A stretch of DNA of 32,000 nucleotides, from assembly GCA_035542475.1 (NCBI GenBank), contig DATKLL010000003.1:31608-63607 (forward strand), read 5' to 3'. Each line of letters opens with the position of its first letter. Within the stretch, counting starts at the first letter, position 1. The position numbers were made by a program, and so were the translations under genes. Under the pieces are notes generated by a model. The model was not told the origin of the DNA. It ran no database searches and was given only the letters and a program-made list of their open reading frames with translations. Below, in pieces: positions 9,302 through 29,281 of the stretch. The DNA is from Syntrophales bacterium. Its GTDB lineage: Bacteria; Desulfobacterota; Syntrophia; Syntrophales; UBA2185.

Positions 9302-9586
9302 TCATGTAAGACCGGCTTCACCGCCGGACAGTACCGGCCTTGTCCTAGTCAGCGACTCAATATAATCGCAGATCTGATTGATAGTCCGGATATCCATGGC
9401 CTGTTTCTTTTCCTCTTGGGTCAGTTCGTAACCGAGCATTTTTTCGATCTTGAGGAGCAGCTCGATGGCATCTATACTGTCAAACCCGTGCTTTTCTCTC
9501 AGGTTATCATCCAATCCCGGATTTTCAATCTCAAACTCCTTGCGAAAGAAATGGAGTATTTGAGTTATAATTTCATCGCGTGTCAT
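9302..9586 (-). CDS. Acyl carrier protein
   Basis: 94 aa from 'MTRDEIITQILHFF', with the phosphopantetheine-attachment motif 'GFDSIDAIELL'. The upstream part of ORF 9302-9757 is a spurious N-terminal extension. Confidence 0.85.
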   Translation of the reverse strand: MTRDEIITQILHFFRKEFEIENPGLDDNLREKHGFDSIDAIELLLKIEKMLGYELTQEEKKQAMDIRTINQICDYIESLTRTRPVLSGGEAGLT

Positions 9587-9635
9587 ATATAGGTCAGAAC
9601 TTTCCTGAAAGTCTTTTCTATTGTTTCCTGACCGG

Positions 9636-10115: not shown

Positions 10116-10116
10116 C

Positions 10117-11382: not shown

Positions 11383-11412
11383 ATGTTCACAGTTTGAATA
11401 TTGCTCTTGAAT

Positions 11413-11767: not shown

Positions 11768-11798
11768 TGAGGCAATTGGCTCTCGTCAGAGTTATTCA

Positions 11799-13097
11799 TC
11801 ATCCAACCCTGCGCAGGACAATGCAGGAATTGCAGCCGCCAAATCCGAATGCATTTTTTAACACATGCTCCTGAGCCAACCTTCTCGCCCCTTCCGGCAC
11901 GCAGTCGATTATGATATCCGGATCAGGTAGATAATTTATCGTGGGGAGAACAGTATCACGTATCATTCCTTCCATGGCAAGGATTATCTCAATAGCGGAG
12001 GACGCCCCCATTGCATGGCCCGTCTGAGACTTGTTTGCCGATACCGGCGGTATATCACTGCCAAAGATATCCTTCAGTGCATCACCTTCCACCTTGTCAC
12101 CGATCTTTGTCGACGTCCCGTGGGCGTTGACCGCATCAATATCTCCCGGCTGCAAGCCGGAATGAGCAATACTTTCCGCAACGCACATCTTCACCGTTTC
12201 CAGGTTCGGAGCAACAAAATGATGCGCGTCCGACGTCATGCCCCATCCCGCCATTTCAATTCTGGGGGTTATTCCATGGACCTTCGCAAAATCCTTACTT
12301 GCCAGGATAATACAGCCGGCACCCTCAGATACGACGAAGCCCCTCCTGTTGATGGAGAAAGGACGGCTTGCCTTATCCGGAGACTCTTCCGGTTGCCCTT
12401 CCTTCGGCCGGTATGCGCCGTTCATCGTGAAAAAACCGCCCACTATGGTTTCAACAAGAGGGAAATCTACGGCGCCACAGATGACTGCGTCCGCCATACC
12501 CTGCTCTATTAACATGGCCCCGATAATCATGGAGGTGGAACCCGTGGCGCAGGCGGTAATGGTCGAGGTTATGGGTCCTGTAGCCCCGGTCATAATGGAA
12601 ATTTTTCCCCCTACCATATTGATGCAGGAGTTTGCATTGGTAAACGGATGGGGCAATTTCCCCCCGGAAACCCACATCCTGTCCGCACGAATCACTGCAT
12701 CAAGACCGCCGACAGCGGTACTGAAGGTAATAGCTACTCTGGAAGCGATATCATCCGTTATTTCAAGCCCGCTTTTTACAAGAGCCCGGTGGACTACCAG
12801 CATGGCATGGCTGAAAACAGGTGATGTCCATAGTGCCATGTCACGGGATTTCAAGAAAGGATAGGAGCTGGTGTTAATATCATCAACCTGGCCTGCTATT
12901 CTTACGGGAAATCCTTCACGGAGAGGGAAACGCGTCAATGCACCAATACCGCTTGCGCCGCGCGATGCACGCTCCCATTGGGTTTCCGTATCGATACCCA
13001 GGGGTGATACGGCGTCATAACCCAATATAACAGGTCTAATACTTTTCATCCTTGTCTGCTTGTTTTTAGGCGCAAGGGGAGTTCGTGAAGCTACCAT
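11799..13097 (-). CDS. Beta-ketoacyl-ACP synthase II-like KS
   Basis: 'TSTITACATGSTSMIIG', 'NAHGTSTKIGD' and 'KSQTGHAMGASSAIE'. An alternative start 'MKSIRPVILGYD' lies at 13049. Confidence 0.85.
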   Translation of the reverse strand: MVASRTPLAPKNKQTRMKSIRPVILGYDAVSPLGIDTETQWERASRGASGIGALTRFPLREGFPVRIAGQVDDINTSSYPFLKSRDMALWTSPVFSHAMLVVHRALVKSGLEITDDIASRVAITFSTAVGGLDAVIRADRMWVSGGKLPHPFTNANSCINMVGGKISIMTGATGPITSTITACATGSTSMIIGAMLIEQGMADAVICGAVDFPLVETIVGGFFTMNGAYRPKEGQPEESPDKASRPFSINRRGFVVSEGAGCIILASKDFAKVHGITPRIEMAGWGMTSDAHHFVAPNLETVKMCVAESIAHSGLQPGDIDAVNAHGTSTKIGDKVEGDALKDIFGSDIPPVSANKSQTGHAMGASSAIEIILAMEGMIRDTVLPTINYLPDPDIIIDCVPEGARRLAQEHVLKNAFGFGGCNSCIVLRRVG

Positions 13098-14089
13098 GGT
13101 ATGAACCGGTAGAGTTTGGCGAACATTTCGTATACTTCAATCCAGTTCTGGAGATCCTTCGTTGAATTCAGATGCTCTCTCTTATTGACCATAACCCAGC
13201 TCATATGCGCAGCGCCATCCTTGCAGGTTGAACAATCCCTTGTTGCAGAGGTGCAGCACCGGTGCATGGTTTGCAGATCCGAAGCCCAGCGGATAAAACG
13301 GATGAGCCTTTTCGGCTGAGGATTTCTGTTATCCAAAGGTTCCGTAACGGACGGGCACTCTGTCCATCCGAATGTCCTATTCATCATCCTGCCCGCGGTG
13401 ATAATCTCATGATAATATTTGCAGGAAATAACGGTCCGCGGGTATTTTTCAAGCATATCGTCCATTTCGGACCGAACGTCTCTCAGCTTATCTTTTGTCC
13501 AGAAAAAACCGTCGACTCTTTCATCATTCGTCAGCAACTGTAAGTGGACCTTCAGACCTACATCGGCAATCTTGCTGATTACACGTTCTATACGCCCGAC
13601 CTGCTTTGGCGTAATAGTGTAAAGGTAATAGGTATTCGGATCTCCTGCGTAATTCTTGCCGGATACGGCGAATGTGTCTTTCCCCCTGAGCAATTTTTCA
13701 TCTTCCTCATCACCCCACAGTGAAATACCCACCATCATATCGGGAAAACGTTCTCTGGGAATCTTGATCAAACCGTTGGTCGCGCAGTATGTCGGCAGCA
13801 GTTTGTAAAAAGCCTCGATCCGGTCGAGAAAGAGTGTCGGTTCCCCGCCGATTAGTATAGCAAGATTTACGCCCCGCTCTTTTTCCTTTTGAACAAACCG
13901 GTACCATTTTCCGACATCCGTTTCCTCGGTGGCCGCCTGATGTTCATTGGAAGAAAAGAAGAAACAGCCCTTGCAGCGCAAATTGCATTGATTGGTTACA
14001 TCGTAGATGGAACTGCGAATATTCAGACTGGATATTTTTTTGTAACGCTCATGCCATGCCTTATCCAGTAAGGAGCTGACAGTTTTCAT
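13091..14089 (-). CDS. Radical SAM enzyme (no B12 domain), paralogue A
   Basis: 'YDVTNQCNLRCKGCFF' (CxxxCxxC), 'ILIGGEPTL', and a C-terminal Cys cluster 'HRCCTSATRDCSTCK'. It aligns along its length with ORF 14169-15311. Confidence 0.8.
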   Translation of the reverse strand: MKTVSSLLDKAWHERYKKISSLNIRSSIYDVTNQCNLRCKGCFFFSSNEHQAATEETDVGKWYRFVQKEKERGVNLAILIGGEPTLFLDRIEAFYKLLPTYCATNGLIKIPRERFPDMMVGISLWGDEEDEKLLRGKDTFAVSGKNYAGDPNTYYLYTITPKQVGRIERVISKIADVGLKVHLQLLTNDERVDGFFWTKDKLRDVRSEMDDMLEKYPRTVISCKYYHEIITAGRMMNRTFGWTECPSVTEPLDNRNPQPKRLIRFIRWASDLQTMHRCCTSATRDCSTCKDGAAHMSWVMVNKREHLNSTKDLQNWIEVYEMFAKLYRFIPW

Positions 14090-14168
14090 AAATACCTATT
14101 CACGCACATTTCAATTGACGATCAAATTTGGGACAGAGGATATATCCCGCTTTTCATAACTACATTTT

Positions 14169-15248
14169 TCAGGGTGGCGCAATCATATCGCGACAGAGGT
14201 TCTCGCCCTTTTCATAACCCATGACCCAGACGGCAAGATACGTATCCACATAGTCGAGCCATGATTTGAAGGTGTCCGGGTCGGTCACATGTCGATACAG
14301 GCGTGCCGTAACAACAGCGCTGCCGGCTGCGTAATGCCTGCATTCTTCACAATCCGTGTCGGGAACACAGCAGGCCACTTCTCTGTCCCAAGAGAGATCC
14401 GCCCTATACTGCCTGAAAGACCTTCCGAGACCGATGTCTGTCGAAGGATTCCTTCTCGGGTAAGAACACCCATAAAGGGCGTGCAGGCCGTACTGGTGAG
14501 TATGTGCAACTGCGTTGTAGGGGGAAAAGAGTATATTTGCATGATAGCGGGAAAGAATATCCATCATCACTTTGCGCGTCCGGTTAAGAGAATCCTTATC
14601 ATGTCTCAACGGACCGGTGTATCCGACAGGTGACGAAAAAACATTAAAGGTGATCTTGCAATCATTTGCGGCAATGGTGTCCATCACCTCATATACTTCA
14701 TCTATATTATCCTGCGTAAAGGTATACACGAAGACCGCCCTGTGATCACCACGGTAATTGTCGATCTGTTTTGAAAGCAGATTTTTTGCCCTTCTGACAC
14801 GCAGGCTCGTTTCATCATTTCCCCAGACGGAGATATGGATCTTGTAGCCGACCGATTCGGGGATGAATTTAAAACCATTCGTGGCTATGCACCCCAGCGG
14901 CATCTCCTCGTGGCAGACCTCGAGAAGCTGAGGAACCATGGACGGCTCGGCACCGGCCAGAACTACATATGTAATGCCCCTTGCCTTTTCCTTCTTCATC
15001 AGCGTTCGCCATGCCTGCGGGTCCTCATTTCCTTGAGCGAATTGCTTTTCACCTTTATAATAATAACAACCGTCGCATCGTATGTTGCAGCGGTTTGTCA
15101 TATCATACGTGGATTCTCGGAGGAAAAAAAACTTCCTCACCTTTTCCCAGCGCCGACGTACTTCAGGCTCGGCCAGCAGCTCGGAAAATTTCCATTTTCT
15201 TGTCCCTTTATCAAATTGAGGAATTGTTATGATGTCCGTGGTATTCAT
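14169..15248 (-). CDS. Radical SAM enzyme (no B12 domain), paralogue B
   Basis: 'YDMTNRCNIRCDGCYYY', 'VVLAGAEPSM', and a C-terminal 'ACCVPDTDCEECR'. The start at 15248 ('MNTTDII') avoids overlap with the ACP; the ORF track extends to 15311. Confidence 0.8.
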   Translation of the reverse strand: MNTTDIITIPQFDKGTRKWKFSELLAEPEVRRRWEKVRKFFFLRESTYDMTNRCNIRCDGCYYYKGEKQFAQGNEDPQAWRTLMKKEKARGITYVVLAGAEPSMVPQLLEVCHEEMPLGCIATNGFKFIPESVGYKIHISVWGNDETSLRVRRAKNLLSKQIDNYRGDHRAVFVYTFTQDNIDEVYEVMDTIAANDCKITFNVFSSPVGYTGPLRHDKDSLNRTRKVMMDILSRYHANILFSPYNAVAHTHQYGLHALYGCSYPRRNPSTDIGLGRSFRQYRADLSWDREVACCVPDTDCEECRHYAAGSAVVTARLYRHVTDPDTFKSWLDYVDTYLAVWVMGYEKGENLCRDMIAPP

Positions 15249-15276
15249 GAATATTTCAAGAAGGGTCCCATTTGGC

Positions 15277-15543
15277 TCATGCTGCCTGCTTCTGCTCAAT
15301 ATATTCGGCAATCATGCGAATGTTTCTGAGTTTGGGATAATCATCCTCATCGATGGTGATGCCGTATTCGTCCTGAAGCACAAGAACCACTGTAGCCAGA
15401 TCCATGCTGTCAACGCCGAGTTCATCCACCAGATCAAGATCGGGATCGAACGTTTCCGGTGTAATCTCTTCCAGCTTCAGTTCGAGGATGATAATTTCGG
15501 CAATCCGAAATATCAGCGCCTTTTTATTCATACTCATGAGCAT
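15277..15543 (-). CDS. Acyl carrier protein
   Basis: 88 aa with the attachment motif 'LGVDSMDLATVV'. Confidence 0.85.
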   Translation of the reverse strand: MLMSMNKKALIFRIAEIIILELKLEEITPETFDPDLDLVDELGVDSMDLATVVLVLQDEYGITIDEDDYPKLRNIRMIAEYIEQKQAA

Positions 15544-16246: not shown

Positions 16247-17071
16247 TTATCCTTGATTATCTCCGGTCCATATCATAACGGGTCGTCCCAGAAGTTCAGC
16301 AAGAGGCACTATCTGTAATCCCTTGCTTTTCAAACCTGAAAGTATCAAGTCAATCTCGCGCAAAAAGTATTCCTTGCCGATCGCCTTCTTTGGTTGGACA
16401 TCATGAAGAAGGATTACGTCATCCGGCTTCACCTTGTTCAATATTCTATCAGACAATTTTTTAATATACCTGTTCCCGAAGTCATTGGCCCGACAAGTGA
16501 AGGTCACGCAATAAAGCCCCTGTTGAAACAAGACTTCAGCCAGTCGCGGATTGGTGATGCCTACAGGCGGCCGGAAAGCAGCAGGTGAGATGCCAAATTG
16601 TTTCAAGAGGGCCTGCGTCGATTCGATCTCCGTATACAGCTTTTCTGAACAGCGCAGCATTAGAAAAGGATCATGCCTGTATGAATGATTGCCGATGTCA
16701 TGGCCACGTGCAAGTATCTCTGCAATCAGGTCGCCGTATTTAGCGGCCTTTTCACCGGTAACGAAGAAAGTGGCCTTTGCCGCATGACGGTCCAGCAGTT
16801 GTAGAATATGTCTGGTAGTCTCCGGATCGGGCCCGTCATCGAATGTTACAGATACCATTGGTCTTCCTGTATATCCCCGGCTGTTGACAGGCAAGAAGAA
16901 ACCCCTTGATGGGATAAAGGGGGCCGCCGCGCAGAGAAAAACAAAAACAGACAGGGGAATGACTGCAAAGTAGCCAGAAAAAAAGGACAGCACTATCGCA
17001 AGTGCAATGGCGAAAAAGCCGGTTACAGCCGCCGGAGATATATATGCCGTCCCTTCTAGGTCACGCTTCAT
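16247..17071 (-). CDS. NodB-family polysaccharide/carbohydrate deacetylase with N-terminal TM anchor
   Basis: 'VTFDDGPDPETT' and 'GNHSYRHD' NodB motifs. The start 'MKRDLEG' at 17071 shares one base with the upstream stop (TGATG); the ORF-track extension to 17167 is spurious. Confidence 0.85.
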   Translation of the reverse strand: MKRDLEGTAYISPAAVTGFFAIALAIVLSFFSGYFAVIPLSVFVFLCAAAPFIPSRGFFLPVNSRGYTGRPMVSVTFDDGPDPETTRHILQLLDRHAAKATFFVTGEKAAKYGDLIAEILARGHDIGNHSYRHDPFLMLRCSEKLYTEIESTQALLKQFGISPAAFRPPVGITNPRLAEVLFQQGLYCVTFTCRANDFGNRYIKKLSDRILNKVKPDDVILLHDVQPKKAIGKEYFLREIDLILSGLKSKGLQIVPLAELLGRPVMIWTGDNQG

Positions 17072-18417
17072 CAGATCAATCGCTCCCACAGAGGTCCCAC
17101 ACGACCCCGCGCATAAAGCTTCGTAATGTTTTTGAACATCAACTGTGATCCGGTACCAATAACCCAATTGGATCGGCCAGCGGCATGGTTTTTCACAAGC
17201 TCCATGACCGCTTCCCGCTGCACGGCCGGCGACCAGTAAAACCTCGGCTCAAGCGGATTCCAGTTTGATTCTATGTGCCCTTCCTCGAGGGCGAGGGTGT
17301 AAAGAGCGGTATGAGGATATATTCTGATCCCGCTGAAAACGAAGAAAGCGGTTTTTTCCAGCTTGTCGGTGTTGGCCAGAGTTTCTTTCAGCGTATCTTC
17401 ATTTTCTCCGGGCCCTCCCAGCATGAGATAATGAGCCACGTGCAGACCGGCAGCAAGAGCCTCCATGTGTGAGGAAAATACATCGTCAATGTGAAAAGGT
17501 TTGCCGTATGCCTCAAGTACACGGTCTGAAAGAGCCTCCGTACCGAATTCCACATGTGTAAGCCCCGCATCGGCGAGGATGTGATAATAGTCAGGCGGAG
17601 AGGCAGTCGGTACAAAAAGGCCGCCCCAGGGAATGGAAATGCCCGCTTTTTTGAATGCTCCAGCAACCTCCAGGCTATGCTCATAACTGCCATTTAACGT
17701 CGAATCCGTCACATAGAGGTATCTGGCGCCGGCGTCCTGTAGCATTCTGGCTGTATCGGCGACTTCTTCAGGCTTAACAAAGCGGAATCGCTTTCCTTCT
17801 ATATGGGGATAAGTACAATAAACACAGCTGAAGGGGCATCCTCTTTTTGTCTGGAGATTGAGGATGCCACCCCTTTCCAGATAAAAAGTTGTATAGGAAT
17901 TATTAGGGAACACGCCGCGTGGGAATGGATGCGGCCATGGTTTCGGAAACTCAATGATACTGTCTTTAGTCACTATGCCGGAAAGACCGGAAATATTTTC
18001 ATTCCTTTCCAGTGCCCTAAGTAATAGCTGGAGACGCTCGCCCTCGCCTATGATGCCATAATCAGCTTCAAGCGAGGTCATTAATTCACCGGGCATAATG
18101 GTAAATCCACTACCTCCCAGTACGATCAGCCCACTCGATCGTTTACGGATCGTACTTATCAATTCCCGAATTTGACCTATAAAGATCTGCACATTGGCAA
18201 AATCGACGTTATCGATGTTTCTGATAGATAAGCCGATGACATCAGGGACGAATTGAGATAGAACCCCGGTCAAGGCACTCCCGTCCCCTAGTTCATTCAT
18301 ATCGACTGTCTTTACCTGATGAGGAGGCGATATAGCACTCATCACATAATCGAGGCCGATCGGGTAAGACGGATGAGGCTCGGCAACTGTGTTTGTTGAT
18401 ACCAATAATACCTTCAC
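17071..18417 (-). CDS. B12-binding-domain radical SAM enzyme (class B)
   Basis: N-terminal 'MKVLLVSTN...VIGLSIRN' cobalamin-binding-like domain and the cluster motif 'KRGCPFSCVYCTY'. The GTG start overlaps the upstream stop (GTGA, 18414-18417). Confidence 0.85.
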   Translation of the reverse strand: MKVLLVSTNTVAEPHPSYPIGLDYVMSAISPPHQVKTVDMNELGDGSALTGVLSQFVPDVIGLSIRNIDNVDFANVQIFIGQIRELISTIRKRSSGLIVLGGSGFTIMPGELMTSLEADYGIIGEGERLQLLLRALERNENISGLSGIVTKDSIIEFPKPWPHPFPRGVFPNNSYTTFYLERGGILNLQTKRGCPFSCVYCTYPHIEGKRFRFVKPEEVADTARMLQDAGARYLYVTDSTLNGSYEHSLEVAGAFKKAGISIPWGGLFVPTASPPDYYHILADAGLTHVEFGTEALSDRVLEAYGKPFHIDDVFSSHMEALAAGLHVAHYLMLGGPGENEDTLKETLANTDKLEKTAFFVFSGIRIYPHTALYTLALEEGHIESNWNPLEPRFYWSPAVQREAVMELVKNHAAGRSNWVIGTGSQLMFKNITKLYARGRVGPLWERLI

Positions 18418-19895
18418 AGACCACCCCCTATGATTTCCCGGGTAAATCTCTCATAACCAATGATATTCCTCACCGTCTGAAAAGATCCAAGCATTGTCCC
18501 CATTATCCCAGGCGCCAGACTGTTCTGACCGGCGAGAAATAAGCCGCCGATGGAAGTGCGTCTCAAAGACGCTGTCTTCATTAATTGTCTTGTTGAACGA
18601 AGAACCCCATATGCCGAACCATTCGGTGAGTTCACCCGGTCCCTGATGGTCAACGGGGTATAGATGTCGAGTATCTTCATCCCTTTGAGATTTCCGAATA
18701 ACTTTGAGGCTTCATCGATGAAGAAACGGGCCTTTTCTGCCTTTGCGTCCGCGTAACTCCTGCCGCGCCGCCCTGACGTTGTCCCCTCCCACTTTCGCCA
18801 TTCCTCAATGCTGCTCGTTGTAATCATGGATAAGATATTTATTCCCGGCTGCCCGCTGTCTCGCAATTGATGGAATATCCCCCGGGACAGCGTGCCGTCT
18901 TCTTCCATGTGAAGTCGGTAGATGTTGTAGGACAGCGCTTCATGCACATAAGTATCGACCGCAACGCTGACGGAAAATAGTCCTTTCGTATTTTCAAGTT
19001 CATTGACCCTCTCAGCATAAGCGGGCCGGAGTGCATCGCCTGGCAGCATAGCGATGAGCGTCTGCGGATGAACAGCGGCAATGACGGCTGATGCCTCAAG
19101 CGCGCGGCCGGACTTTAAAATGACGCCTTTAACCTGTCCAGACTCTGTCATGATTCTTTCGACACCGTCGCCGGTAACGACATCGCCGCCCAGTGATTTA
19201 AGGCGGGACACAAACGCATCCGCCATATGGGAGCCGCTGCAGGCCAATCGCCAGGAGGACAGGAGATAGGAAGCAAGGGTCATATAATAATAAAAGGCCG
19301 GACAATCCTTCAAAGGAACTCCGATTAATGTAGAAGAAACACCCAGTACAGAGAAAAGACGGAGAGAACAATTTGCGTGCTGGAGGCGTTCCCCCATTGA
19401 CTCAAAATTCTCCGGTGAGAGAAAATTCATTCCCGGGGACGTCAGCATATCGAGCGATGAAAGGGAATGGGATATTTGCCTCAAATCCCCCATGATCGTT
19501 TTAATCTGGCTTTGTTCCAAAGGAAAGGCTTGTCTCAGGTTGTCTTCGAAGGCATCGATGCTCTCAGGAAGATCGAAAGTAAAATCATCAAAAATATATC
19601 GGTCTACGACACCATCTGTGCCTAAACGTTCGACCGGGATTGACGGGGTGACACCGAGATAATCCCACAATCTTCGGAGAGGCTGGCCTTTTTCGAGAGA
19701 GCCCATGTAATGCACGCCCACGGGACATTCAATACCGGACCGGACATAGCTCCGCATCAATCCACCCGGCAGTGGATTTCTTTCCACGACCGTAACCTGG
19801 TGATTAAGCTTCGATAGAATGATGCCAGCAGTTAAGCCGCCGACACCGGAGCCGATGATCAGGATATCTCCATCCGCTTGTCCTTTCTTCATCAT
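18414..19895 (-). CDS. CrtI/phytoene-desaturase-like FAD-dependent oxidoreductase
   Basis: 'ILIIGSGVGGLTAGIILSKLNHQVTVVERNPLPGG' dinucleotide-binding motif, about 490 aa, and a C-terminal 'GLFLAGQNSLAPGIMG' typical of the amine-oxidase/CrtI fold. The ATG at 19895 overlaps the upstream stop (ATGA). Confidence 0.8.
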   Translation of the reverse strand: MMKKGQADGDILIIGSGVGGLTAGIILSKLNHQVTVVERNPLPGGLMRSYVRSGIECPVGVHYMGSLEKGQPLRRLWDYLGVTPSIPVERLGTDGVVDRYIFDDFTFDLPESIDAFEDNLRQAFPLEQSQIKTIMGDLRQISHSLSSLDMLTSPGMNFLSPENFESMGERLQHANCSLRLFSVLGVSSTLIGVPLKDCPAFYYYMTLASYLLSSWRLACSGSHMADAFVSRLKSLGGDVVTGDGVERIMTESGQVKGVILKSGRALEASAVIAAVHPQTLIAMLPGDALRPAYAERVNELENTKGLFSVSVAVDTYVHEALSYNIYRLHMEEDGTLSRGIFHQLRDSGQPGINILSMITTSSIEEWRKWEGTTSGRRGRSYADAKAEKARFFIDEASKLFGNLKGMKILDIYTPLTIRDRVNSPNGSAYGVLRSTRQLMKTASLRRTSIGGLFLAGQNSLAPGIMGTMLGSFQTVRNIIGYERFTREIIGGGL

Positions 19896-22072
19896 GGCCT
19901 TATCTCCATCGCCGTTACGTAATTGCCGAATCCGATGACAAGGATACCCCGACCCTGCAATTGCAACGGACTCTGATGACAAGTATTTTCGGGCATAATA
20001 CCTGCTTTCACAAAAGAGACCGCTAGAACTGCTGCCACCGCTGATGCTGACGCAAACTCGCCGACGAACCGCCTGTAATCGATAACAGGATGAGGGTATC
20101 CTGTGACAGACAGAAATTCACCAAGCTGCTCTCGACCCTTGTCATTCTGTGCGGCGGGAATCCCCACCATAATGGCCCCAAATTCGTCACTGATTCTTTT
20201 TCCTCCACCATGCGCATTGACAAGCTCTGCGATGCATTTTCCGTTGTTTCCGGCGTAAGAGAAAAATGAAGGAGATATCAGTGGGGAAGACGCCGATGTC
20301 GCCGGTATGAGGCAGAGGGCACCGCCGCCGTCTGCCGGGATACCCGCCCGTGCCACAGAGGCATCGAACAGCGGTGACAACTTTTCATGATACTCGTCCG
20401 CCCCTATTACAAGCAGGGGGGCATCACTGTTACAGGCCAGAAAGCTCGCGCTCAGTAGTGCCTGTTCGAACGAGCAATCACCGCCCGTCATGGTCACATT
20501 CGGCCCGGTAGCCTTGAAGCGGATCGCGATATGCCCTGCGGCCGCGTTATGTACGGAGCCGACAAAATCCGTCGGGCTGGTGAATCTTTCACCAGACACA
20601 AAGAGTTTTGTCAGAAAATCATGAGTCTCTGAAAGCCCGCCCCAGCCTGTCCCGAAAAAGACCGATTTTGGAGGGGGCTCTGTCGCTGGATCTCCGCAGG
20701 CGGAAACTGCAAGCGACAAACCTAGACGACAGAGTCGCTTCATGCGGCGGACATATTTCTCTGAGATGAATCTTAGTATTTCTGCGGATGGGACGATTCC
20801 CCCCGCTTCTTCGCCACGGCTGATACGCTGTGTTGTTTGCCCGACATCCCCGGCCCCCGTGAAGCACGAGTTCCCCAGAACGGCAAATGCCCTGGGCCTT
20901 GCTGCGCGTGAAGGAGCCTTGAAATCTTCGCTGCGCCGCGGACGGCCGACGACGATAGAGGCGTTATTTCCGCCGAAGCCGAAGGCGTTTACGAGAACTG
21001 AATTAAGCTTCGCTTCCGTAGGCTGAACCACGGGCGTCAACCGCAACTCAGGATCAGGTTCATGAAAGCCGATATTTGCGGGTATGACGCCATGGGTAAT
21101 GCATAACGAGGAAACAGCAGCGCCCATTGCCCCCGCTGCTGCTAACGAATGCCCGACAGACCCTTTGATGGAAGAGAGAGGTGGCAAAGGCCGATCTGCG
21201 AAAAGGACATGTACAGCTCGCGCTTCGGCGAGATCATTATCGATGGTACCTGTACCGTGCAGATGAACATAATCTATATCCGCGGGGGTGATGCGGGCGT
21301 CGGAAAGAGCCTCTTTCATGGCACGCAACGCCCCGGCACCTTCCGGATGAGGCGAAGCGGGATGGTAGGCGTCGCAGGATAAGCCGGCGCCGAGTAGTTC
21401 AACGGTGGCATCTTCTGGCGGGACTTCTGCGGCAGTCAGGAGCAGCATGGCGGCGCCCTCACCGACAGACATACCACGTCTTTCTTTATCAAACGGATGC
21501 GCTCCCGTAGAATCCACAAGCTGAAGGGCATGAAAGCCGTGATAGGTCAACCGGCATAACGCATCAACGCCACCGGCAAGAACTTTTTTTATATCGCCGG
21601 ACCGCAGCATTTCAACAGCGATCTTCAGGGCAACAGACCCCGACGAGCACGCTGTGGAAACGGTGAGGACCGGGCCTTTGCATCCCACACGGCGGGCTAT
21701 GTACTCGGCAATAGTACCTGTGGAGTGATTCCTGTATTTCTCAGGATCAACAACTCCCTCTTTTAAAAGTTCTTCTGTAGTAGGCATTCCTCCCGTGGTG
21801 ATGCCGATGACCACCGCGTCAGGAATGACTCCTTCATCTTTAATTGCCTCTTGGCTGGCAGCAAGAGCTATTGCGTGAGTCCTTGGTAAATCATCTGAGA
21901 AAGAAAACGAGCTGATTTCGCCAACAGGGAGTGGTGTTTCGGCAGTCGGAAAAAGTTGAAGGGGTTTAATTTCTCGTGCGGCATTCCTTATGGCGTCGAT
22001 TGTGTCGCATATTCCTCGGCCAAATGGGCTTATTATCCCCAAGGATGTGATAAAAACTCGCATATCATTCAA
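19892..22072 (-). CDS. Fused ketosynthase / chain-length-factor-like protein (KS-CLF)
   Basis: The N-terminal half has 'TVSTACSSGS', 'HLHGTGTIDND' and 'KGSVGHSLAAAG'. The C-terminal half (about aa 395-726) looks KS-fold-like ('FFGTGWGGL', 'FVGSVHNAAAGHIAIRF') but has no HGTGT or GH motifs. Confidence 0.8.
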   Translation of the reverse strand: MNDMRVFITSLGIISPFGRGICDTIDAIRNAAREIKPLQLFPTAETPLPVGEISSFSFSDDLPRTHAIALAASQEAIKDEGVIPDAVVIGITTGGMPTTEELLKEGVVDPEKYRNHSTGTIAEYIARRVGCKGPVLTVSTACSSGSVALKIAVEMLRSGDIKKVLAGGVDALCRLTYHGFHALQLVDSTGAHPFDKERRGMSVGEGAAMLLLTAAEVPPEDATVELLGAGLSCDAYHPASPHPEGAGALRAMKEALSDARITPADIDYVHLHGTGTIDNDLAEARAVHVLFADRPLPPLSSIKGSVGHSLAAAGAMGAAVSSLCITHGVIPANIGFHEPDPELRLTPVVQPTEAKLNSVLVNAFGFGGNNASIVVGRPRRSEDFKAPSRAARPRAFAVLGNSCFTGAGDVGQTTQRISRGEEAGGIVPSAEILRFISEKYVRRMKRLCRLGLSLAVSACGDPATEPPPKSVFFGTGWGGLSETHDFLTKLFVSGERFTSPTDFVGSVHNAAAGHIAIRFKATGPNVTMTGGDCSFEQALLSASFLACNSDAPLLVIGADEYHEKLSPLFDASVARAGIPADGGGALCLIPATSASSPLISPSFFSYAGNNGKCIAELVNAHGGGKRISDEFGAIMVGIPAAQNDKGREQLGEFLSVTGYPHPVIDYRRFVGEFASASAVAAVLAVSFVKAGIMPENTCHQSPLQLQGRGILVIGFGNYVTAMEIRP

Positions 22073-22221
22073 TTCAATAACACTTGGCCTTTTTCGACGC
22101 GAAGCCGCAGATAAAGTACTTAGTCGAATTGACCCAGAGTGGGAGAAACGGATCCAAAGGATATAAAATTAACTTTCCGGCAATTTGCTGCGTGAAATAG
22201 GGTCAGGATTTACCCTGGAGT

Positions 22222-22497
22222 TCATGCCATAGATTTGACTTTCTCCGACCGATACTGTTGGACATAGTCCGCTAAAGCCGCAACGGATGCAAAGACCTTG
22301 ATGCCGAGTTCTCTGCTGTCAATCTTTACACCGTAGTCTTTTTCAAGCATCATGACCAGTTCCAGGACATCGATGGAATCCAGTCCTAGATCACCACCAA
22401 TGAGTTGCGCATTCTCATTGATGTCTTTCGGAGAAATATCGATGAGATTTAAGCTCTCAATTATTTTAACTTTCAGTTCTTGGATCAATTCATTCAT
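22222..22497 (-). CDS. Acyl carrier protein
   Basis: 91 aa from 'MNELIQELKVKIIE' with 'LGLDSIDVLELV'. AAAGGA precedes the ATG at 22497; the ORF-track extension to 22587 is spurious. Confidence 0.85.
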   Translation of the reverse strand: MNELIQELKVKIIESLNLIDISPKDINENAQLIGGDLGLDSIDVLELVMMLEKDYGVKIDSRELGIKVFASVAALADYVQQYRSEKVKSMA

Positions 22498-22890: not shown

Positions 22891-24027
22891 ATGTTTAGAA
22901 AGATTAGATGGTTAGGGTATTTGTTGGCATTATCGCTCTTAGCTTCTATGTTTTTGATGGGGTGCGCCACTCAGAAGGCCAGCCCATTCGTCAAAGCCGG
23001 CGACCTCAGCATGAAGATGAAATCTGGTAAGTACACTCAGAACGCTGACAATTTCGAGATTATTGTCGACAAGACCGGTTCAATGGGGAGTGATTATAAA
23101 GGGGTACAGAAGTTTGTCATCGAAAAGTCTCTCGTAACCAAGTTTAACAGCTACATTCCCGATTTGAGCCTCAACGCCGGACTGAGGACTCTCGGCCAGA
23201 ACTATGTCGATTTTGACGTCACAAAATTGGAGTATGGGATTGGAAAATACGACCCGGAGGGCCTCCACGGAGTTATACAGAATTTGAGAAATCCTTTCGG
23301 GGAGAGCCCACTCGGGACGGCAATTTCAGCGGCAGGCAATGACCTGAAAGGCCTTCAGGGCAAGAGCGCCCTCATTATATTCTCGGACGGAGTAGATATG
23401 GGCGAGGAGACAGTGAAGGCGGCAACGAACGTTAAGAGTGAGTATGGCGATAGACTGTGCATTTATACCGTCCTGATAGGAAATGATGAAAACGGGGCCA
23501 AACTCCTGAATCAGGTATCACGGGCCGGTCAGTGCGGAGTTTCTGTAAAGGGTGATGATCTTGCAGACGACGCAGCGATGAGTGCTTTTGTGGAAAGGAT
23601 TTTCCTGACTACCGGGATGGCCAAGGCACCAACACCAGCACCGGTAAAGGAAGTGAAGAAAGCGCCGGCTGCCGAGCCGATGCTTGAGAAAGGCCGGGTT
23701 ACGCTCGCTGTCGAGTTCGACACGGGGAAGAGTGTTGTAAAACCCAAGTACTATGATGCCATCCGGGGTGTTGCCGTGTATATGAAGAAACATCCGGATG
23801 CAAACGTTGTTATTGAAGGACATACGGACAATGTCGGCGGAGAGAAATACAATCTCAATCTTTCCCAGAAGCGCGCCGAAGCGGTAAAAAATATTCTGGT
23901 AACCAAATTCAACATCGACCAGTCCCGTCTGACGGCAAAAGGTTTTGGACAATCTAAACCTATCGCGAGCAATGCAACCAAGGAAGGGAAACAGAAAAAC
24001 AGGAGAGTTGAAGCGGCTGTAGAATAA
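22891..24027 (+). CDS. Lipoprotein with vWA-like domain and C-terminal OmpA/MotB peptidoglycan-binding domain
   Basis: AGGAGG RBS and lipobox 'FLMGCAT'. MIDAS-like 'VDKTGSMGS', 'LGTAI' and 'IFSDGVD'. A Pro/Ala/Lys linker leads to the OmpA_C signature 'IEGHTDNVGGEKYNLNLSQKRAEAV...NRRVE'. Confidence 0.8.
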   Translation: MFRKIRWLGYLLALSLLASMFLMGCATQKASPFVKAGDLSMKMKSGKYTQNADNFEIIVDKTGSMGSDYKGVQKFVIEKSLVTKFNSYIPDLSLNAGLRTLGQNYVDFDVTKLEYGIGKYDPEGLHGVIQNLRNPFGESPLGTAISAAGNDLKGLQGKSALIIFSDGVDMGEETVKAATNVKSEYGDRLCIYTVLIGNDENGAKLLNQVSRAGQCGVSVKGDDLADDAAMSAFVERIFLTTGMAKAPTPAPVKEVKKAPAAEPMLEKGRVTLAVEFDTGKSVVKPKYYDAIRGVAVYMKKHPDANVVIEGHTDNVGGEKYNLNLSQKRAEAVKNILVTKFNIDQSRLTAKGFGQSKPIASNATKEGKQKNRRVEAAVE

Positions 24028-24069
24028 TGCCGTCGAAAGATAATGAATCTTCCTTGATCATTTAATATA

Positions 24070-24115
24070 GAAGGCCTCTCAATATCTCAAAACTGATCGA
24101 GAGGCCTTCTTTTCT
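24070..24115 (+). terminator. Rho-independent terminator after the OmpA-family gene
   Basis: An 11-bp stem 'gaaggcctctc' (24070-24080) / 'gagaggccttc' (24099-24109) is followed by 'ttttct'. Confidence 0.7.
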
Positions 24116-24182
24116 ATAAAAATTTTTCCAGCACTAAAGACTGGCGTATGATTTTACCCGCCTGTCTGGAAAGGGGAATTAT

Positions 24183-24632
24183 ATGCTTAAGGAATTTAAA
24201 GAATTCGCAATGCGCGGAAACGTCGTCGATATGGCCGTCGGCATTATCATCGGTGCTGCTTTCGGAACCATAGTGAAATCTTTGGTTGATGATATTATCA
24301 TGCCGCCTATAGGACTTCTCCTGGGTAATGTCGATTTCTCCAACCTTTTCCTGGTTATGAAATCGGGAAAGATGGCAGGCCCCTACGCGACCCTCGCCGA
24401 TGCCAAGGCTGCCGGCGCAGTTACCTTGAATGCCGGTGTGTTCTTCAACACGGTCATAAGCTTTATCATCGTTGCATTTTCTGTGTTTCTTATCATTAAA
24501 CAGATAAATATGCTGAAAAGAAAAGAGGCGGCACCGGCCATACCTATTACGAAGGAGTGTGTATATTGTTTATCGACCATTCCCATAAAAGCCTCTCGAT
24601 GTCCTAACTGTACCTCTGAATTAAAGGCATAA
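24183..24632 (+). CDS. mscL: Large-conductance mechanosensitive channel MscL with C-terminal CxxC...CxxC tail
   Basis: '[44 protein letters not shown]' is the MscL N-terminal signature. The C-terminus carries '[18 protein letters not shown]'. Confidence 0.9.
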
Positions 24633-24665
24633 TAAACCGGAGTGCTAAACAGCACTGAGATAAGG

Positions 24666-24705
24666 AAAAGGCAGAGTCTATTACAGCTCTGCCTTTTTTA
24701 TTTTT
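24666..24705 (+). terminator. Rho-independent terminator after mscL
   Basis: The stem 'aaaaggcagag' (24666-24676) / 'ctctgcctttt' (24687-24697) runs into a T-rich tract 'ttttttattttt'. Confidence 0.7.
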
Positions 24706-24745
24706 AAAATAGTTTCTCTTTACTTATAACACCATTATCTTTAAC

Positions 24746-25234
24746 ATGACGGTATACAAATTTGCCAGAGCAGATATGGAAATACAACTTTTAATTGTCT
24801 TGGTTATTATAGTTATCGTTTTGATTGCAGTGTTTAAACGGCAGGCAGGCAAACGGTTCGGAAAAATTAGACCAAACGGTAACATAACCGAAGCATATAC
24901 ACACTTTAAAGTTAACCCTGATCTCAATTATTATACCAGCGGATCTGATGTTCATCCAAATGCTATTATAGGAATCGACAAGGCATGGACATTGGAATCC
25001 GACCTGTGGAAGAAAAAGAATCTTGACTCTCAAAGCATGAAAGAACTGGTGCAGGGTATGCAGGCCAAGGCCGCAGAGCGCATCTTGACGCTCCACGGCT
25101 TCGACATTTTTGATGACCACGATATGAAAATAGGCGATTGGTTTTCCATCATGGGTGCCACTACGACTGTTGAGGTTGCAGGCGAAAAGAGAGTCATCAT
25201 ACAGACCCCTCCTGTGGATACGTATCAGTCATGA
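24746..25234 (+). CDS. Hypothetical small membrane-anchored protein
   Basis: A 162-aa ORF with one N-terminal hydrophobic helix ('LLIVLVIIVIVLIAVF') and no recognisable motif. An alternative start lies at 24776. Its 3' end overlaps the convergent acyltransferase gene by 10 nt. Confidence 0.4.
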   Translation: MTVYKFARADMEIQLLIVLVIIVIVLIAVFKRQAGKRFGKIRPNGNITEAYTHFKVNPDLNYYTSGSDVHPNAIIGIDKAWTLESDLWKKKNLDSQSMKELVQGMQAKAAERILTLHGFDIFDDHDMKIGDWFSIMGATTTVEVAGEKRVIIQTPPVDTYQS

Positions 25235-26166
25235 ATTGATGCAGGTTTAAACAAATCACCGCCGGTTTTGTCATCCAGCTTCCGACATAGAAAAGGCTCG
25301 AAGTGGAACCATTCAAACGGATGCTGCCGCACTTTTTCCTCGAGGCGGTCGGCATATGCCTGCGCCGCCCTGCTGATGGCCTCCTGTCTATCGGTCCTGT
25401 TATTTGCACGGACATACACCGGTGGTAAGTTTTGAAAGTGGTATGTTTGTTTGCCCGTACGGAACGCGAAAAAAATGTAAAGGGGCGTGCCGGAGAGCAG
25501 GGCAAAGACAAAGGGTGTTTCCGGCAGAAACGCCTCATGACCCAGGAAACGCACAGGCACAGAACGCTGGTCTTTACGCCATAAGCGGTCGCCCGTCAAG
25601 GAAACCAGGCCGCCTTCCTTCAGGAAGTTGATGCCTTCAACGATATCCGTGGGGGTTCCTCCTTCTTCTTCCACGACTATTATCTTCACGCCGCTCTGGA
25701 CAAGGTCCTCTTTCTGTGTGCGCTCGATCTGGTCCTTGTGCTTCTGCCCCAGGTAGAGAAGGAGTTTCATCCGCGGATTATTGCTGCCCCGAATCCGGAG
25801 CGAGTGCGCCGCGATTTCCCAGCTTCCGACATGGGACATGAGGATGATGCCGCCGATATTCCCGTCTACGGCATCCTCAAGATAATTCCAACCCTCGTGG
25901 GTGATGTTGAGATTTTTTTCATCGAGGAGGAGAATGCGGTCCATATAGACATGGGTGAAATTGTGAAACTGCCTCCATGCGCACCAGACATGATACAATG
26001 CACCTCTTCGCGGGAATAGGGCTTTGTAAAAGTACACACTCATGGCCACCCTTCCCGGAAAGAGAATAAAATATCCGGTAGCGACAAACCAGGCCATGAA
26101 ACGGAACACCCATAGACCCAGCCGTTTCGACAGGAAGATTAAAACCTTATAAAATATATCTTTCAT
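25225..26166 (-). CDS. LpxL/HtrB-family (lysophospholipid / lipid A-type) acyltransferase
   Basis: N-terminal TM helix and the HX4E motif 'MSHVGSWE' at the position typical of lauroyl/myristoyl acyltransferases, about 310 aa. The start 'MKDIFYK' at 26166 lies 10 nt after the MMPL stop. Confidence 0.75.
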   Translation of the reverse strand: MKDIFYKVLIFLSKRLGLWVFRFMAWFVATGYFILFPGRVAMSVYFYKALFPRRGALYHVWCAWRQFHNFTHVYMDRILLLDEKNLNITHEGWNYLEDAVDGNIGGIILMSHVGSWEIAAHSLRIRGSNNPRMKLLLYLGQKHKDQIERTQKEDLVQSGVKIIVVEEEGGTPTDIVEGINFLKEGGLVSLTGDRLWRKDQRSVPVRFLGHEAFLPETPFVFALLSGTPLYIFFAFRTGKQTYHFQNLPPVYVRANNRTDRQEAISRAAQAYADRLEEKVRQHPFEWFHFEPFLCRKLDDKTGGDLFKPASIHD

Positions 26167-26176
26167 CTTTTCACGC

Positions 26177-29100
26177 CTACGCGACAATATCTTGGATGTC
26201 CATCCTGGCAACAAACCACCACTCTTCCTTGCCCGGCGCGCTGATTTCTGTACGCATGATTTCGAAATCGGCCTCTGATATCACGGAAGCGATGGCCTCC
26301 TTTGTCCGGAAGAGCGGCGTGCCTTTGTGAAGCCTAACCCTTGTCGATTCGAGCCAGCGCGTCCAGGGAAAAAGTTTTTCCGAAGGCACAGTCGCCCTGA
26401 TGATTAAAGTGCCGCCCGGACGAAGCTTCTCGTGGAGGCGCTGTAAAGTCAAACGCAATTCCTCATCGGTTATCAGATGGATCATATCCAGGAGGAGCGC
26501 CGTGTCTGCCATGCCGGGGACATCGGGTATATCAGGAGCGCGTCCGACCGTGACGGCGCCCCTTTTGCCTATCGCCCGCGACGCGAAACGCACACGCTTG
26601 CGGTCCGGCTCGATCCCGAATACCTTTGCGCGGGGGAAGATCTCGAGAAGCCAGATGGCGGGCACACCGTAACCGGTTCCCACATCGATGATGACTTCCG
26701 GCTGTTTGACAAAAGCAGCAAGTTTCGGGAACATGGGATCAAGGATGAGCTTGAAGCGGGCGAAGAGCCGCGGATAGGCCTCCATATGCCGGTACCGACC
26801 GACTGCACGCTGCCGGTGTCTTTTTGAACCGAGTGTAATCATCTCATCCTTCAGAGGCACAGGCGTAAACATTCGTTTCAGGATGGGCGGCGTAATCATC
26901 ACGGCGCCCAGGAAAGAATAGCCGATCCCCAGGGCAAGGCCCAGCCCCGCACTCTTCAGCATGGCATTGTCGGCAAGCACCAGGACGCCGAACCCCAGAA
27001 ATGTTGTGGCGAAGGAAAGAAAAACGGACAGTCGTATAAGCCCTAGAGAAGGATCGTACTCATCGAAATAGCGCTGGTAGGAGCGCACCAGATAAAGGGC
27101 ATAGTCCGTCCCCATCCCGATGACGACAACGGATACCATGAGGGTCGGAATGGTGAGGGGCTGCCCGGTGAGATTCAATGTGCCGAGGGTGCATATCAGG
27201 GCAAAGATCGTTGGCGCCATGCCGAGCAGGGTAAGCTGCCAGTCGAAAAAATAGAAGAAGGCGGTTAATATTGTGATGATGCCCACGATGACGGCCATTT
27301 TGATGAAGGCGGAAAGGAGGGCTGATTCAAACTTCTTGCCGAAAAGGGCCGGGTCGAATACCCTCGCCAGTCCCGCTGCCGTGAAGCGCCTGTAAAATTC
27401 CTCTCCGTTATATGATGGTCCCGGCGTCAGGGTCACAACCTCTACCCAGGAAGACCGATCCCGATTCACCGATATGCCGAAGAGACCGGAAAACTTCTCG
27501 GGCATATCGGTCCCCTGCCAGTCTTTTTTATTTATCAGCCTGAAAAAATGATCGAAAGCGGACGGTGAAAAACCGAGCGGCCTTGAAACTTCTCCCACAG
27601 TCTTTCGCAACCCGGCGACGCGATCCAGCCTCCAGAAGCTTCTCCAGGCCGCGAGATTTGTACGCGCCATCTCTTCGCCGGGGAACAACATGGACGGGAC
27701 AAACGCCTGCGAAAGGCGGCCGGCATCAACTTCCTGAGAAAGCAGCTCCGCCAGACGGTCGCTTTTCTGCTGGAGGTCCTGCCGATCGCTTCCCTCCAGC
27801 ATAAGATAAAGCCTGCTCATGATATCGCCCCACGTATCGCGGACGAGTTTCTCCGCGCTCAGCGTCTCCCGGCTGACGGCATTCATGGTATTTAAATCGA
27901 CATGAAATTCCGGCCTGGCAAAGAATAGCATGAAAACGGCAAAAGCTAGTGCGGCATACACTTTCCACATACCGGTCGCAGATGCGATTCTGTTTACAAA
28001 ACGCTGCAGGGGCAGATACGGCTGGCGTTTTTCCGGAGTGACCACAGGAAATAACAGGGGAAAGAAGGCATGGACAAATATGAAAGTGAACACGACTCCC
28101 AGCGCGGCAAACTGTCCTATCTGCGAGAGTGCGGGAAACCCGCTCACGGACAGGAACGCGAAGCTGACGGCGGTCGTCAGCATGGCAAGGAGACCCAGCG
28201 ACCAGACCTCCCTGGTGGTTTCTATGCCGCGCGTTTCGTACGGGCGGTCGAGAAAAAGCAGATACGTGATGCCGTAATCGACAGTAAAGGAAATGATCGC
28301 CCCTCCGAAGCCTACGGCCAGCATGGAAATGGAAGTGTGAAAAAGCGAATACACGAAGATCGCCATCATGGTCCCGGCAAAGGCAGGCAGCAGGGACAAG
28401 AGCCCTATCAGAGGTCTGGGAAAACCCACAAAGAGCAAAATGGCGATGGCGATAGTGGAAAATAAAACCGCCTTTCTGACGTTCCTTTTCGCGCTCAGCT
28501 CATTATCAAGAGCAGCGCGGTAGGCGCCGACGGGTGTCAGGATGAATCCATTTTGCCGGCCGTATTTCCCGTGCAGATTTTCGGAGATATTATCCAGCAG
28601 CGCCGTAACTTTTCTGGAGAACTGAGTATCCATACCGGAGCTCAAAGGCTCGGCGATGATCAGGATATGCTTCCCGTCTGATGAGACAAGATGGCCTTTG
28701 TAAATGCGCGCCCCCTTCACCGGCGAGAGAAACGACAAGCGCTCAAGGATGATATTTCGCAGGGCGAGGGGGTCATCGGAGATAAGCCCCGTCTGGCCTA
28801 TTCCTTCAAGAAGGTGCAGGGACGATATATAATCCTCCATGGTCTGCCGCACCTTTTCAGGCGCCAGCAGAGGTTTGACGTTTTCTTCAAGCTCCTTCTT
28901 GTTAAAGAGGATCGGGAGATGATCGACGATATACCGGATCAGCTCCGGCATAAGTTGACCGATATGACTGAAACCCACTTCCTTGAAGAGGCCGCTTGTC
29001 CGCATCTCCGCCTCAACTAGGTTAGCCCCCTGAACGAGTATGTCAACATCTCCGCCGGGATTTCCCACATCGACGACTACCCGGTCATGAATCGGGTGAT

Positions 29101-29272: not shown

Positions 29273-29281
29273 GAAAAACTC

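Follow-up and report, generated by a model that had tools for sequence, protein, structure and literature searches.

Introduction

A type of gene cluster common to Kuenenia stuttgartiensis, Desulfotalea psychrophila, Geobacter and Pelobacter was described in 2009, characterized by divergent FabF paralogues, radical S-adenosylmethionine (SAM) enzymes, "phytoene dehydrogenases", a deacetylase-like protein, a glycosyltransferase, and a membrane protein (PMC2649909). The anammox "Cluster I" (kuste3603-3608) comprises an acyl carrier protein (ACP), FabZ, FabF, a non-canonical FabF, a phytoene-desaturase homologue, and a B12-binding radical SAM enzyme (PMC4790861), its gene names including amxACP, amxFabZ, amxFabF2, and amxFabFmut. 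More recently, two anammox FabF homologues, which are separate polypeptides, were reported to form a heterodimer resembling a ketosynthase (KS) paired with a chain-length factor (CLF) and to decarboxylate malonyl-ACP (10.64898/2026.05.19.726425). Clusters labelled "ladderane" are routinely mined from Desulfobacterota and other non-anammox phyla, their function being unknown (PMC9902471). The present article is concerned with one such locus, located in a stretch of 32,000 nucleotides (hereafter the window) from a Syntrophales bacterium (assembly GCA_035542475.1, contig DATKLL010000003.1, positions 31,608 to 63,607), at the center of which an ACP gene is followed by genes for a fused KS-CLF protein, a CrtI-like flavoenzyme, a B12-binding radical SAM enzyme, and a NodB-type deacetylase.

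Two further systems are relevant to this locus. Aryl-polyene lipids consist of a glycerol-phosphate-GalNAc backbone bearing a conjugated C26:5 acyl chain, with ApeD and ApeJ responsible for assembly and ApeM for export (10.1101/2020.12.19.423268), and KS and CLF are separate proteins in aryl-polyene systems (PMC8358021). The flexirubin cluster groups a polysaccharide deacetylase, FlxP, with an acyltransferase, LolA, a glycosyltransferase, and an exporter (PMC3992019).

The locus is a typical member of the known, widespread, and functionally unsolved "ladderane-type" cluster family, and it has its scaffold in common with aryl-polyene and flexirubin clusters. In the literature on such clusters from Desulfobacterota and Syntrophales, no characterized product was found, only statements of unknown function. 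With a probability of roughly 0.55, the five genes are considered to form the core of a cluster of about 27 kb, resembling type II fatty acid and polyketide synthases (PKS), that makes a specialized envelope glycerolipid. The identities of the parts are near certain; far less confidence attaches to each tailoring reaction.

The fused KS-CLF protein

All five open reading frames lie on the minus strand, and the domain assignments made for their products in a first-pass annotation, prepared from the sequence alone, are borne out by Pfam for each protein (Table 1). For the fused protein, that annotation had described an N-terminal half with an intact Cys-His-His triad and a KS-like C-terminal half devoid of both His motifs, and this description holds. 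In an alignment of 40 KS-CLF homologues with 53-91% identity, C142, H272, K303, and H308 of the N-terminal half are invariant (40/40), constituting the Cys-His-His triad and Lys residue by which an elongating ketosynthase is recognized. PF00109 and PF02801 match this half, and its best sequence match in the Protein Data Bank (PDB) is 9s5h_B (4.9e-61); 9s5h is only probably the anammox FabF heterodimer, as the preprint text carries no PDB codes. The C-terminal half contains PF13723 (the ApeC-type "Ketoacyl-synt_2") at residues 440-563. Sequence alignment of this half (335 residues) finds the N-terminal subdomain of FabF (3.6e-7), the chain-length factors Iga12 (1.3e-5) and ApeC (7e-4), and, at only 4.6e-5, 9s5h_C.

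When the two halves were compared by hhalign, in an alignment covering the N-terminal subdomain only, Cys142 of the KS was placed opposite Asp532. This position is occupied by D in 31 homologues, N in 5, E in 2, Q in 1, and A in 1 (n = 40). The equivalents of the first His, the Lys, and the second His, which were assigned from motifs and the register of secondary structure, with less certainty than that of the Cys, are Gly637 (40/40), Arg667 (40/40), and Glu672 (36/40), respectively. The C-terminal half therefore has a KS-like fold lacking the Cys as well as both His residues, as is characteristic of a chain-length factor. These alignments show in silico that only the N-terminal half would be able to condense, the CLF half having lost its Cys and both His residues, with a conserved acidic or amide side chain in place of the Cys. 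The presence of D, N, E, or Q there in 39 of the 40 homologues is only suggestive of a role of this half in chain length or decarboxylative priming.

Structure prediction by AlphaFold2 from the 40-homologue alignment yielded one compact body with a mean pLDDT of 90 and a pTM of 0.94, with low confidence confined to the linker near residues 381-390. The best Foldseek match of this model in the PDB is 6RIW, the fused KS-CLF didomain of PfaC from a polyunsaturated fatty acid (PUFA) synthase, which covers the entire model (TMq 0.81, E 3e-43, 18% identity), whereas single-domain FabF and KS structures cover only half of the query. The model thus shows the heterodimer-like fold for which the first-pass annotation had proposed structure prediction as a check, namely a predicted KS/CLF pseudo-heterodimer formed within a single chain and containing one active site. 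PfaC has the same covalent fusion and overall pseudo-heterodimer architecture, although it forms part of a multidomain, type I-like megasynthase with dehydratase domains, whereas the present protein stands alone as a didomain within a type II system whose ACPs are discrete. The type II PKS pairs of actinorhodin and ishigamide (Iga11/Iga12) likewise combine an active KS with a partner lacking the triad, and Iga11 and Iga12 rank among the top matches in both sequence and fold; in these systems, however, the subunits are separate and the CLF has Gln at the Cys position, in contrast to the Asp that mostly occurs here.

Distribution and origin of the fusion

Among 5.8 billion proteins searched, more than 120 full-length homologues (about 720 aa, 53-91% identity) have the same three-domain architecture; their named sources include Syntrophales, Syntrophobacterales, Desulfobacteraceae, "Deltaproteobacteria", and Spirochaetota, one of them being already annotated as "beta-ketoacyl synthase chain length factor". 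A metagenome scan seeded with the CLF domain alone identified 397 loci, and in all 80 that were retrieved the CLF is fused to a KS (48-83% identity). Among 1.84 billion representatives clustered at 50% identity, 46 of the best 150 matches are 650-1050 aa long and are matched at about residues 390-725, and standalone CLFs (313-356 aa) occur among these 150 only at 28-31% identity. In a Bacteroidia locus (L006), separate genes for a KS (414 aa) and a CLF (346 aa) lie 1 nt apart and are followed by a NodB gene; the CLF is of the same type, with Asn at the Cys position and a FIHSTHN motif. The fusion is accordingly best read from these sequences as an old joining of an adjacent KS/CLF gene pair that is now usual in this lineage.

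An assembly or frameshift artefact joining two genes, an explanation to which the separate neighbors in L006 and in aryl-polyene systems (PMC8358021) lend some plausibility, has a negligible probability, given the number of independent full-length homologues, the fused state of every retrieved metagenomic locus, the fused representatives at 50% clustering, and the confident single-body AlphaFold2 model. This candidate was rejected on the homologue, metagenome, and cluster counts. Of the three outcomes named at the first pass as counting against its reading, namely a non-KS fold, a complete triad in the C-terminal half, and a fusion artefact, none was encountered. Its further claim that a covalent fusion is unusual stands only in part: aryl-polyene systems do have two separate proteins, but all 80 retrieved relatives and at least 46 clusters at 50% identity are fused, and PfaC provides a precedent.

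Accessory enzymes and carrier proteins

The flavoenzyme possesses an FAD-binding N-terminus and a PF01593 domain, and it passes none of the named CrtI-family models of NCBIfam (crtI_fam, 50 vs 238 bits; CrtD, 80 vs 550; CrtISO, 70 vs 587). Its AlphaFold2 model (pTM 0.90) is matched by Foldseek to the carotenoid desaturase 4REP (TM 0.73), plant phytoene desaturase (PDS; 0.71), and CrtI (0.54), all at no more than 17% identity, so that the CrtI/PDS-type fold implied by the first-pass term "CrtI-like" is supported. On the basis of the model, the protein is regarded as a CrtI-fold enzyme that has only the fold and the FAD-binding N-terminus in common with the CrtI family proper. Homologues carry the JGI labels "all-trans-retinol 13,14-reductase" or "phytoene dehydrogenase-like", and one database protein, from a Syntrophales metagenome-assembled genome (MAG), is 100% identical.

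The B12-binding radical SAM enzyme scores 382.2 bits on NCBIfam TIGR04072 ([quoted passage not shown]; cut-off 360), the next-best family being BzaD at 130 bits. It also has the remaining marks of that family, namely a B12-binding domain, a radical SAM core, and the CxxxCxxC motif, present in the translation as CPFSCVYC. The nearest solved structures are TsrM and AprD4. The second B12-binding radical SAM enzyme of the cluster attains only 105 bits on the same model.

The NodB-type protein is recognizable as a deacetylase by a PF01522 score of 100.7 bits together with the metal-binding and catalytic motifs TFDD, HSYRH, RPPVG, and LLHD. NodB adjoins KS/CLF in flexirubin-type loci of Bacteroidia, and by analogy with those clusters it would belong with the KS/CLF core and the export and anchor genes, not with chain tailoring. 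The closest solved relative of the dehydratase is ApeI (6qsr_A, 3.3e-8), with FabZ types scoring lower, and its gene is placed after NodB or after the radical SAM gene in relatives. ACP1 scores 69.9 bits on NCBIfam PRK09184 (cut-off 70); an ACP lies upstream of KS-CLF in nearly all relatives, and the ACP2 gene after the dehydratase is also conserved.

Gene order and stop/start overlaps

Gene order was counted in 45 loci with at least 3.5 kb after KS-CLF. The flavoenzyme, radical SAM, and NodB genes follow in this order in 14 loci, with the dehydratase next in 13; the radical SAM and dehydratase genes follow with neither flavoenzyme nor NodB between in 24/45; flavoenzyme, NodB, and dehydratase follow in three; and NodB and dehydratase in one. 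Individual loci illustrate this range: L085 has the gene order of the window with the same overlaps, L084 is without the radical SAM gene, L081 is without both the flavoenzyme and the radical SAM gene and contains an AMP-ligase, an ApeP-like dehydratase, a ketoreductase, and LolA, L086 has only the ACP and KS-CLF genes, and in L003 the radical SAM gene precedes that of the flavoenzyme. A genome scan with the flavoenzyme alignment, one pattern of which was the generic FAD motif GSGxGGL, found four close loci and no anammox locus among the matches listed, and flavoenzyme paralogues stand beside ACP3-KS4-PlsC or beside the second B12-binding radical SAM gene (L001, L002). Across these arrangements, ACP1 and KS-CLF form a constant core, with the flavoenzyme and the TIGR04072 enzyme as mobile accessories, and NodB travels with the KS/CLF core, as it does in Bacteroidia.

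As a separate observation, a record titled as a MAG of Klebsiella pneumoniae (L007, about 5300-13000) shows the order ACP, NodB, CLF-like, flavoenzyme, KS, and ACP, like flexirubin-type loci; this arrangement is unexpected for the organism label and may reflect a mis-binned contig.

The stop/start overlaps reported at the first pass (ATGA, GTGA, and TGATG) read in the sequence exactly as noted there, and they are retained almost throughout the relatives in which the genes adjoin (Table 1). The TGATG junction places the true NodB start at 17071, and a purine-rich, Shine-Dalgarno-like stretch lies 6-17 nt 5' of each of the three overlapping starts. ACP1 is not translationally coupled, because a gap of about 147 nt separates it from the KS start. 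Since three more overlaps occur in the same operon (11415-11418, 7188-7191, and 13091-13097), such junctions are real but represent a general trait of a packed operon. Their conservation where the genes adjoin supports co-translation and not a fixed complex, and the stoichiometric co-production of four enzymes that had been deduced from them does not follow, as the genes after KS-CLF vary among relatives. Across the whole window, an Rfam scan found no RNA family and no cobalamin riboswitch, and a promoter and terminator scan gave counts no different from the shuffled level and was uninformative.

These data bear on a different interpretation of the module, according to which the four coupled enzymes act as one stoichiometric unit, with oxygen-independent, CrtI-like desaturation followed by cyclization or rearrangement by the B12-dependent enzyme, as proposed for ladderane precursors. 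Desaturation followed by radical chemistry corresponds to the ladderane/PUFA hypothesis of Rattray 2009 (PMC2649909). The adjacency of the genes, the conserved 4-nt overlaps, the order kept in 14 of the 45 relatives, and the TIGR04072 membership are in keeping with it, as are the same enzyme types in anammox Cluster I (PMC4790861; 10.64898/2026.05.19.726425) and the syntenic cluster and polyunsaturated hydrocarbons of Desulfotalea (PMC2649909). It is nevertheless judged unlikely. The variation of the genes between KS-CLF and the dehydratase argues against an obligatory unit: the radical SAM gene follows KS-CLF with no intervening flavoenzyme gene in more than half of the relatives counted, the flavoenzyme occurs without it in three, and the order is reversed in one. 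Moreover, overlapping junctions are common elsewhere in the operon, the anammox flavoenzyme homologues cannot replace CrtI, expression of kuste3603-3608 in Escherichia coli gave no product (PMC4790861), and ladderanes are known from anammox bacteria only (PMC9902471).

Comparison with described clusters

Like anammox Cluster I, the locus pairs an active KS with an inactive KS-like protein and adds an ACP of its own, a dehydratase, a CrtI-like flavoenzyme, and a B12-binding radical SAM enzyme, and the wider cluster has in common with the anammox and 2009 clusters the paired non-B12 radical SAM enzymes, several FabF paralogues, a glycosyltransferase, a deacetylase, and a membrane exporter (PMC2649909, PMC4790861). 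The differences from Cluster I are that KS and CLF are one polypeptide here, that the CLF is of a truncated PF13723 type of about 335 aa and not full-length FabF-like, that the dehydratase is ApeI-like and not FabZ-like, that NodB lies inside the module, and that the host belongs to the Syntrophales, where ladderanes are not known. The CLF, dehydratase, and ACP of the module are closer to aryl-polyene types.

The features in common with aryl-polyene clusters comprise the PF13723 CLF, the ApeI-like dehydratase, the aryl-polyene-type ACP, a GT2 glycosyltransferase, an LpxL-like acyltransferase, and an MMPL exporter (PMC8358021). Flexirubin-type loci likewise have NodB adjoining KS/CLF, and a flavoenzyme of 25-29% identity stands beside the exporter there (PMC3992019). 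Unlike here, KS and CLF are separate in both of these systems; aryl-starter genes and the ketoreductase do not occur in this window, and four radical SAM enzymes, PlsC, and PlsY are additional.

The locus could on this account be taken as a conventional aryl-polyene/flexirubin pigment cluster, yielding an aryl-capped conjugated polyene that is anchored in the outer membrane and protects against oxidants. In addition to the features just listed, the PRK09184/PRK09185-like ACP and KS, the relative L081 with its AMP-ligase, ApeP-like dehydratase, ketoreductase, and LolA, and the Bacteroidia loci, which have both KS-CLF-NodB and GT2-MMPL-flavoenzyme sets, speak for such an assignment. However, the aryl-polyene core set is only partly present, as KS, ACP, CLF, dehydratase, and MMPL are accompanied by no AMP-ligase, ammonia-lyase, LolA, ketoreductase, or enoyl reductase either within the window or in the 10 kb to the right of it (the 5' side of the cluster). 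The four radical SAM enzymes, four intact KS, and PlsC/PlsY are foreign to aryl-polyene clusters, and the host comes from a strict-anaerobe lineage, which together make a pigment cluster very unlikely.

Proposed pathway

For the preferred reading, synthesis of a specialized envelope glycerolipid, the following sequence of steps may be envisaged. With ACP1 as the carrier, and on the model of type II PKS, ApeO-ApeC, and the anammox heterodimer, the KS-CLF didomain would prime by decarboxylating malonyl-ACP1 and then elongate, with the CLF setting the chain length. Because the cluster has neither a ketoreductase nor an enoyl reductase, ketoreduction would presumably be supplied by housekeeping FabG, and the chain would keep its double bonds after the ApeI-like dehydratase has acted, since no enoyl reductase follows. 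The CrtI-fold flavoenzyme might then alter the double-bond state, isomerization, saturation, and desaturation being alike possible. The TIGR04072 enzyme could functionalize an unactivated carbon, with C-methylation as the default of its class and C-C bond formation as the alternative; both it and the flavoenzyme would be optional, independently placed accessories. Finally, the membrane-anchored NodB might deacetylate an N-acetylhexosamine head group made with the GT2 enzyme, and the LpxL-like, PlsC, and PlsY acyltransferases and the MMPL exporter would assemble and export the glycerolipid. The steps assigned to the B12-dependent enzyme, to NodB, and to the acyltransferases and exporter are proposed because of the aryl-polyene lipid precedent. 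The embedding of PlsC and PlsY in the cluster suggests that the products are loaded directly onto glycerol-3-phosphate, and the Bacteroidia arrangement, with split KS and CLF genes, NodB, and a dehydratase-GT2-MMPL-flavoenzyme set, is also counted in favor of this reading.

Several points weigh on the other side. No member of the cluster family has a known product, and the roles given to the flavoenzyme, the B12-binding radical SAM enzyme, and NodB are analogies. The flavoenzyme is below the cut-off of every named CrtI-family model. Decarboxylative priming is uncertain because, where the CLFs of type II PKS have Gln in place of the Cys, this family mostly has Asp. The connection to anammox Cluster I depends on the TIGR04072 score and the match to 9s5h, which is only probably the anammox heterodimer, and the six genes kuste3603-3608 yielded no new fatty acid in E. 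coli (PMC4790861).

Implications for ladderane-type clusters

The anammox versions of the cluster are the leading candidates for ladderane biosynthesis. Anammox bacteria are genetically intractable, and the reactions of their cluster that are known to us are limited to those of the ACP, FabZ, and KS/CLF. Among non-anammox anaerobes, the combination of a fused KS-CLF, the same B12-binding radical SAM family, and a CrtI-fold flavoenzyme is widely distributed and has diversified. As the set is widespread, its accessories come and go, and its core is common with aryl-polyene and flexirubin clusters, fewer genes can be ladderane-specific. The fusion additionally serves as a natural "Rosetta stone" that backs the KS/CLF pairing reported for anammox bacteria in 2026, while cultured relatives and natural variants offer experimental handles.

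A more speculative proposal, to which only a small probability is attached, is that the set of ACP, KS-CLF, flavoenzyme, and TIGR04072 enzyme carries out the same oxygen-independent chain remodelling in Syntrophales and Desulfobacterota as in anammox Cluster I. Were this so, those remodelling steps would not be specific to ladderanes, and widespread anaerobes would make an undescribed class of modified acyl lipids, for example with radical-methylated, cyclized, or conjugated chains; the natural variants with the flavoenzyme, the radical SAM enzyme, both, or neither would then provide a comparative series for assigning the steps. The locus itself introduces no new principle, its main value being comparative evidence on the open chemistry of the cluster family.

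Organization of the wider cluster

The cluster of about 27 kb contains four KS, FabH, three or four ACPs, four radical SAM genes, a GT2 gene, an MMPL exporter, PlsC, and PlsY. Toward lower coordinates, the dehydratase is followed by ACP2, two non-B12 radical SAM genes, KS2, a GIY-YIG insert, KS3, a thioesterase, ACP3, KS4, PlsC, the second B12-binding radical SAM gene, a PS-DH dehydratase gene, and PlsY. Toward higher coordinates lie an LpxL-like acyltransferase, an MMPL exporter-methyltransferase fusion, GT2, an ACP-like open reading frame, FabH, and a thioesterase.

Table 1. Coordinates of genes, domains, and gene junctions in the window
Feature	Coordinates	Strand	Evidence and remarks
ACP1, 91 aa	22222-22497	-	Serine attachment motif LGLDSID; Pfam PP-binding 4.4e-11
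Fused KS-CLF, 726 aa	19892-22072	-	TTG start 22072, alternative ATG 22063; Pfam PF00109 + PF02801 + PF13723
KS domain, residues 1 to ~377	20942-22072	-	Triad and Lys intact
CLF domain, residues ~395-726	19895-20890	-	Truncated KS-like fold without triad; PF13723
Flavoenzyme, 493 aa, FAD-dependent, CrtI/PDS-fold, "phytoene dehydrogenase-like"	18414-19895	-	Pfam Amino_oxidase/NAD_binding_8
B12-binding radical SAM enzyme, 448 aa	17071-18417	-	TIGR04072; Pfam B12-binding + Radical_SAM
NodB-type deacetylase, 274 aa, FlxP-like, hydrophobic N-terminus	16247-17071	-	Pfam Polysacc_deac_1 7.3e-29
ApeI-like hot-dog dehydratase, 124 aa	15650-16024	-	Pfam ApeI-like/FabA
ACP2, 88 aa	15277-15543	-	Pfam PP-binding 8.1e-11
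ATGA overlap, KS-CLF stop/flavoenzyme start	19892-19895	-	Overlapping in 23/23 relatives
GTGA overlap, flavoenzyme stop/B12-binding radical SAM GTG start	18414-18417	-	Overlapping in 16/16 relatives
TGATG overlap, B12-binding radical SAM stop/NodB start	17069-17073	-	Overlapping in 14/15 relatives
Downstream part of the cluster	4183-15311	-	Pfam and NCBIfam matches; synteny with L084 and L085
Upstream part of the cluster	25225-31746	-	Pfam matches and open reading frame listing; same order in L085 and L087

In the downstream part, the two adjoining non-B12 radical SAM enzymes (380 and 332 aa; 13091-15311, minus strand) have only weak matches; among those with a name, the tetraether lipid synthase Tes scores highest, at about 30 bits, and the pair is strongly conserved with ACP2, KS2, KS3, and the thioesterase across relatives. 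A 105-aa gene with a GIY-YIG nuclease domain (11415-11732, minus strand) is located between KS2 and KS3, its stop overlapping the KS3 start by 4 nt; it resembles a small mobile insertion in the operon, because KS2 directly precedes KS3 in L084 and L085. The glycerol-3-phosphate acyltransferases PlsC and PlsY stand beside the second B12-binding radical SAM enzyme, whose best matches are BchE and HpnR, and the PS-DH protein (4183-7976, minus strand).

In the upstream part, the MMPL/RND-type exporter of 1031 aa (26177-29272, minus strand) carries a C-terminal SAM-dependent methyltransferase domain, a fusion that is also present in L085 and in L087, a copy of the source contig; the aryl-polyene methyltransferase ApeB and exporter ApeM are, unlike this fusion, separate proteins. 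Between FabH and GT2, a 91-aa open reading frame (30028-30303, minus strand) has an ACP-like serine motif, IPDWDSMVAV, and no Pfam match; it may be a fourth, divergent carrier protein, and a 91-aa gene is called at this place in L087 as well. Between ACP1 and the LpxL-like gene, the minus-strand genes are interrupted by a plus-strand trio (22891-25234), for an OmpA-family protein (weak match to VWA), for MscL, and for a 162-aa protein, which does not occur at that position in L085. Just past the thioesterase/FabH end of the cluster, and beyond the window end at 32000, a third, divergently oriented B12-binding radical SAM gene is found at 8041-9492 of L087, beside a likewise divergent gene for a 712-aa protein without a Pfam match.

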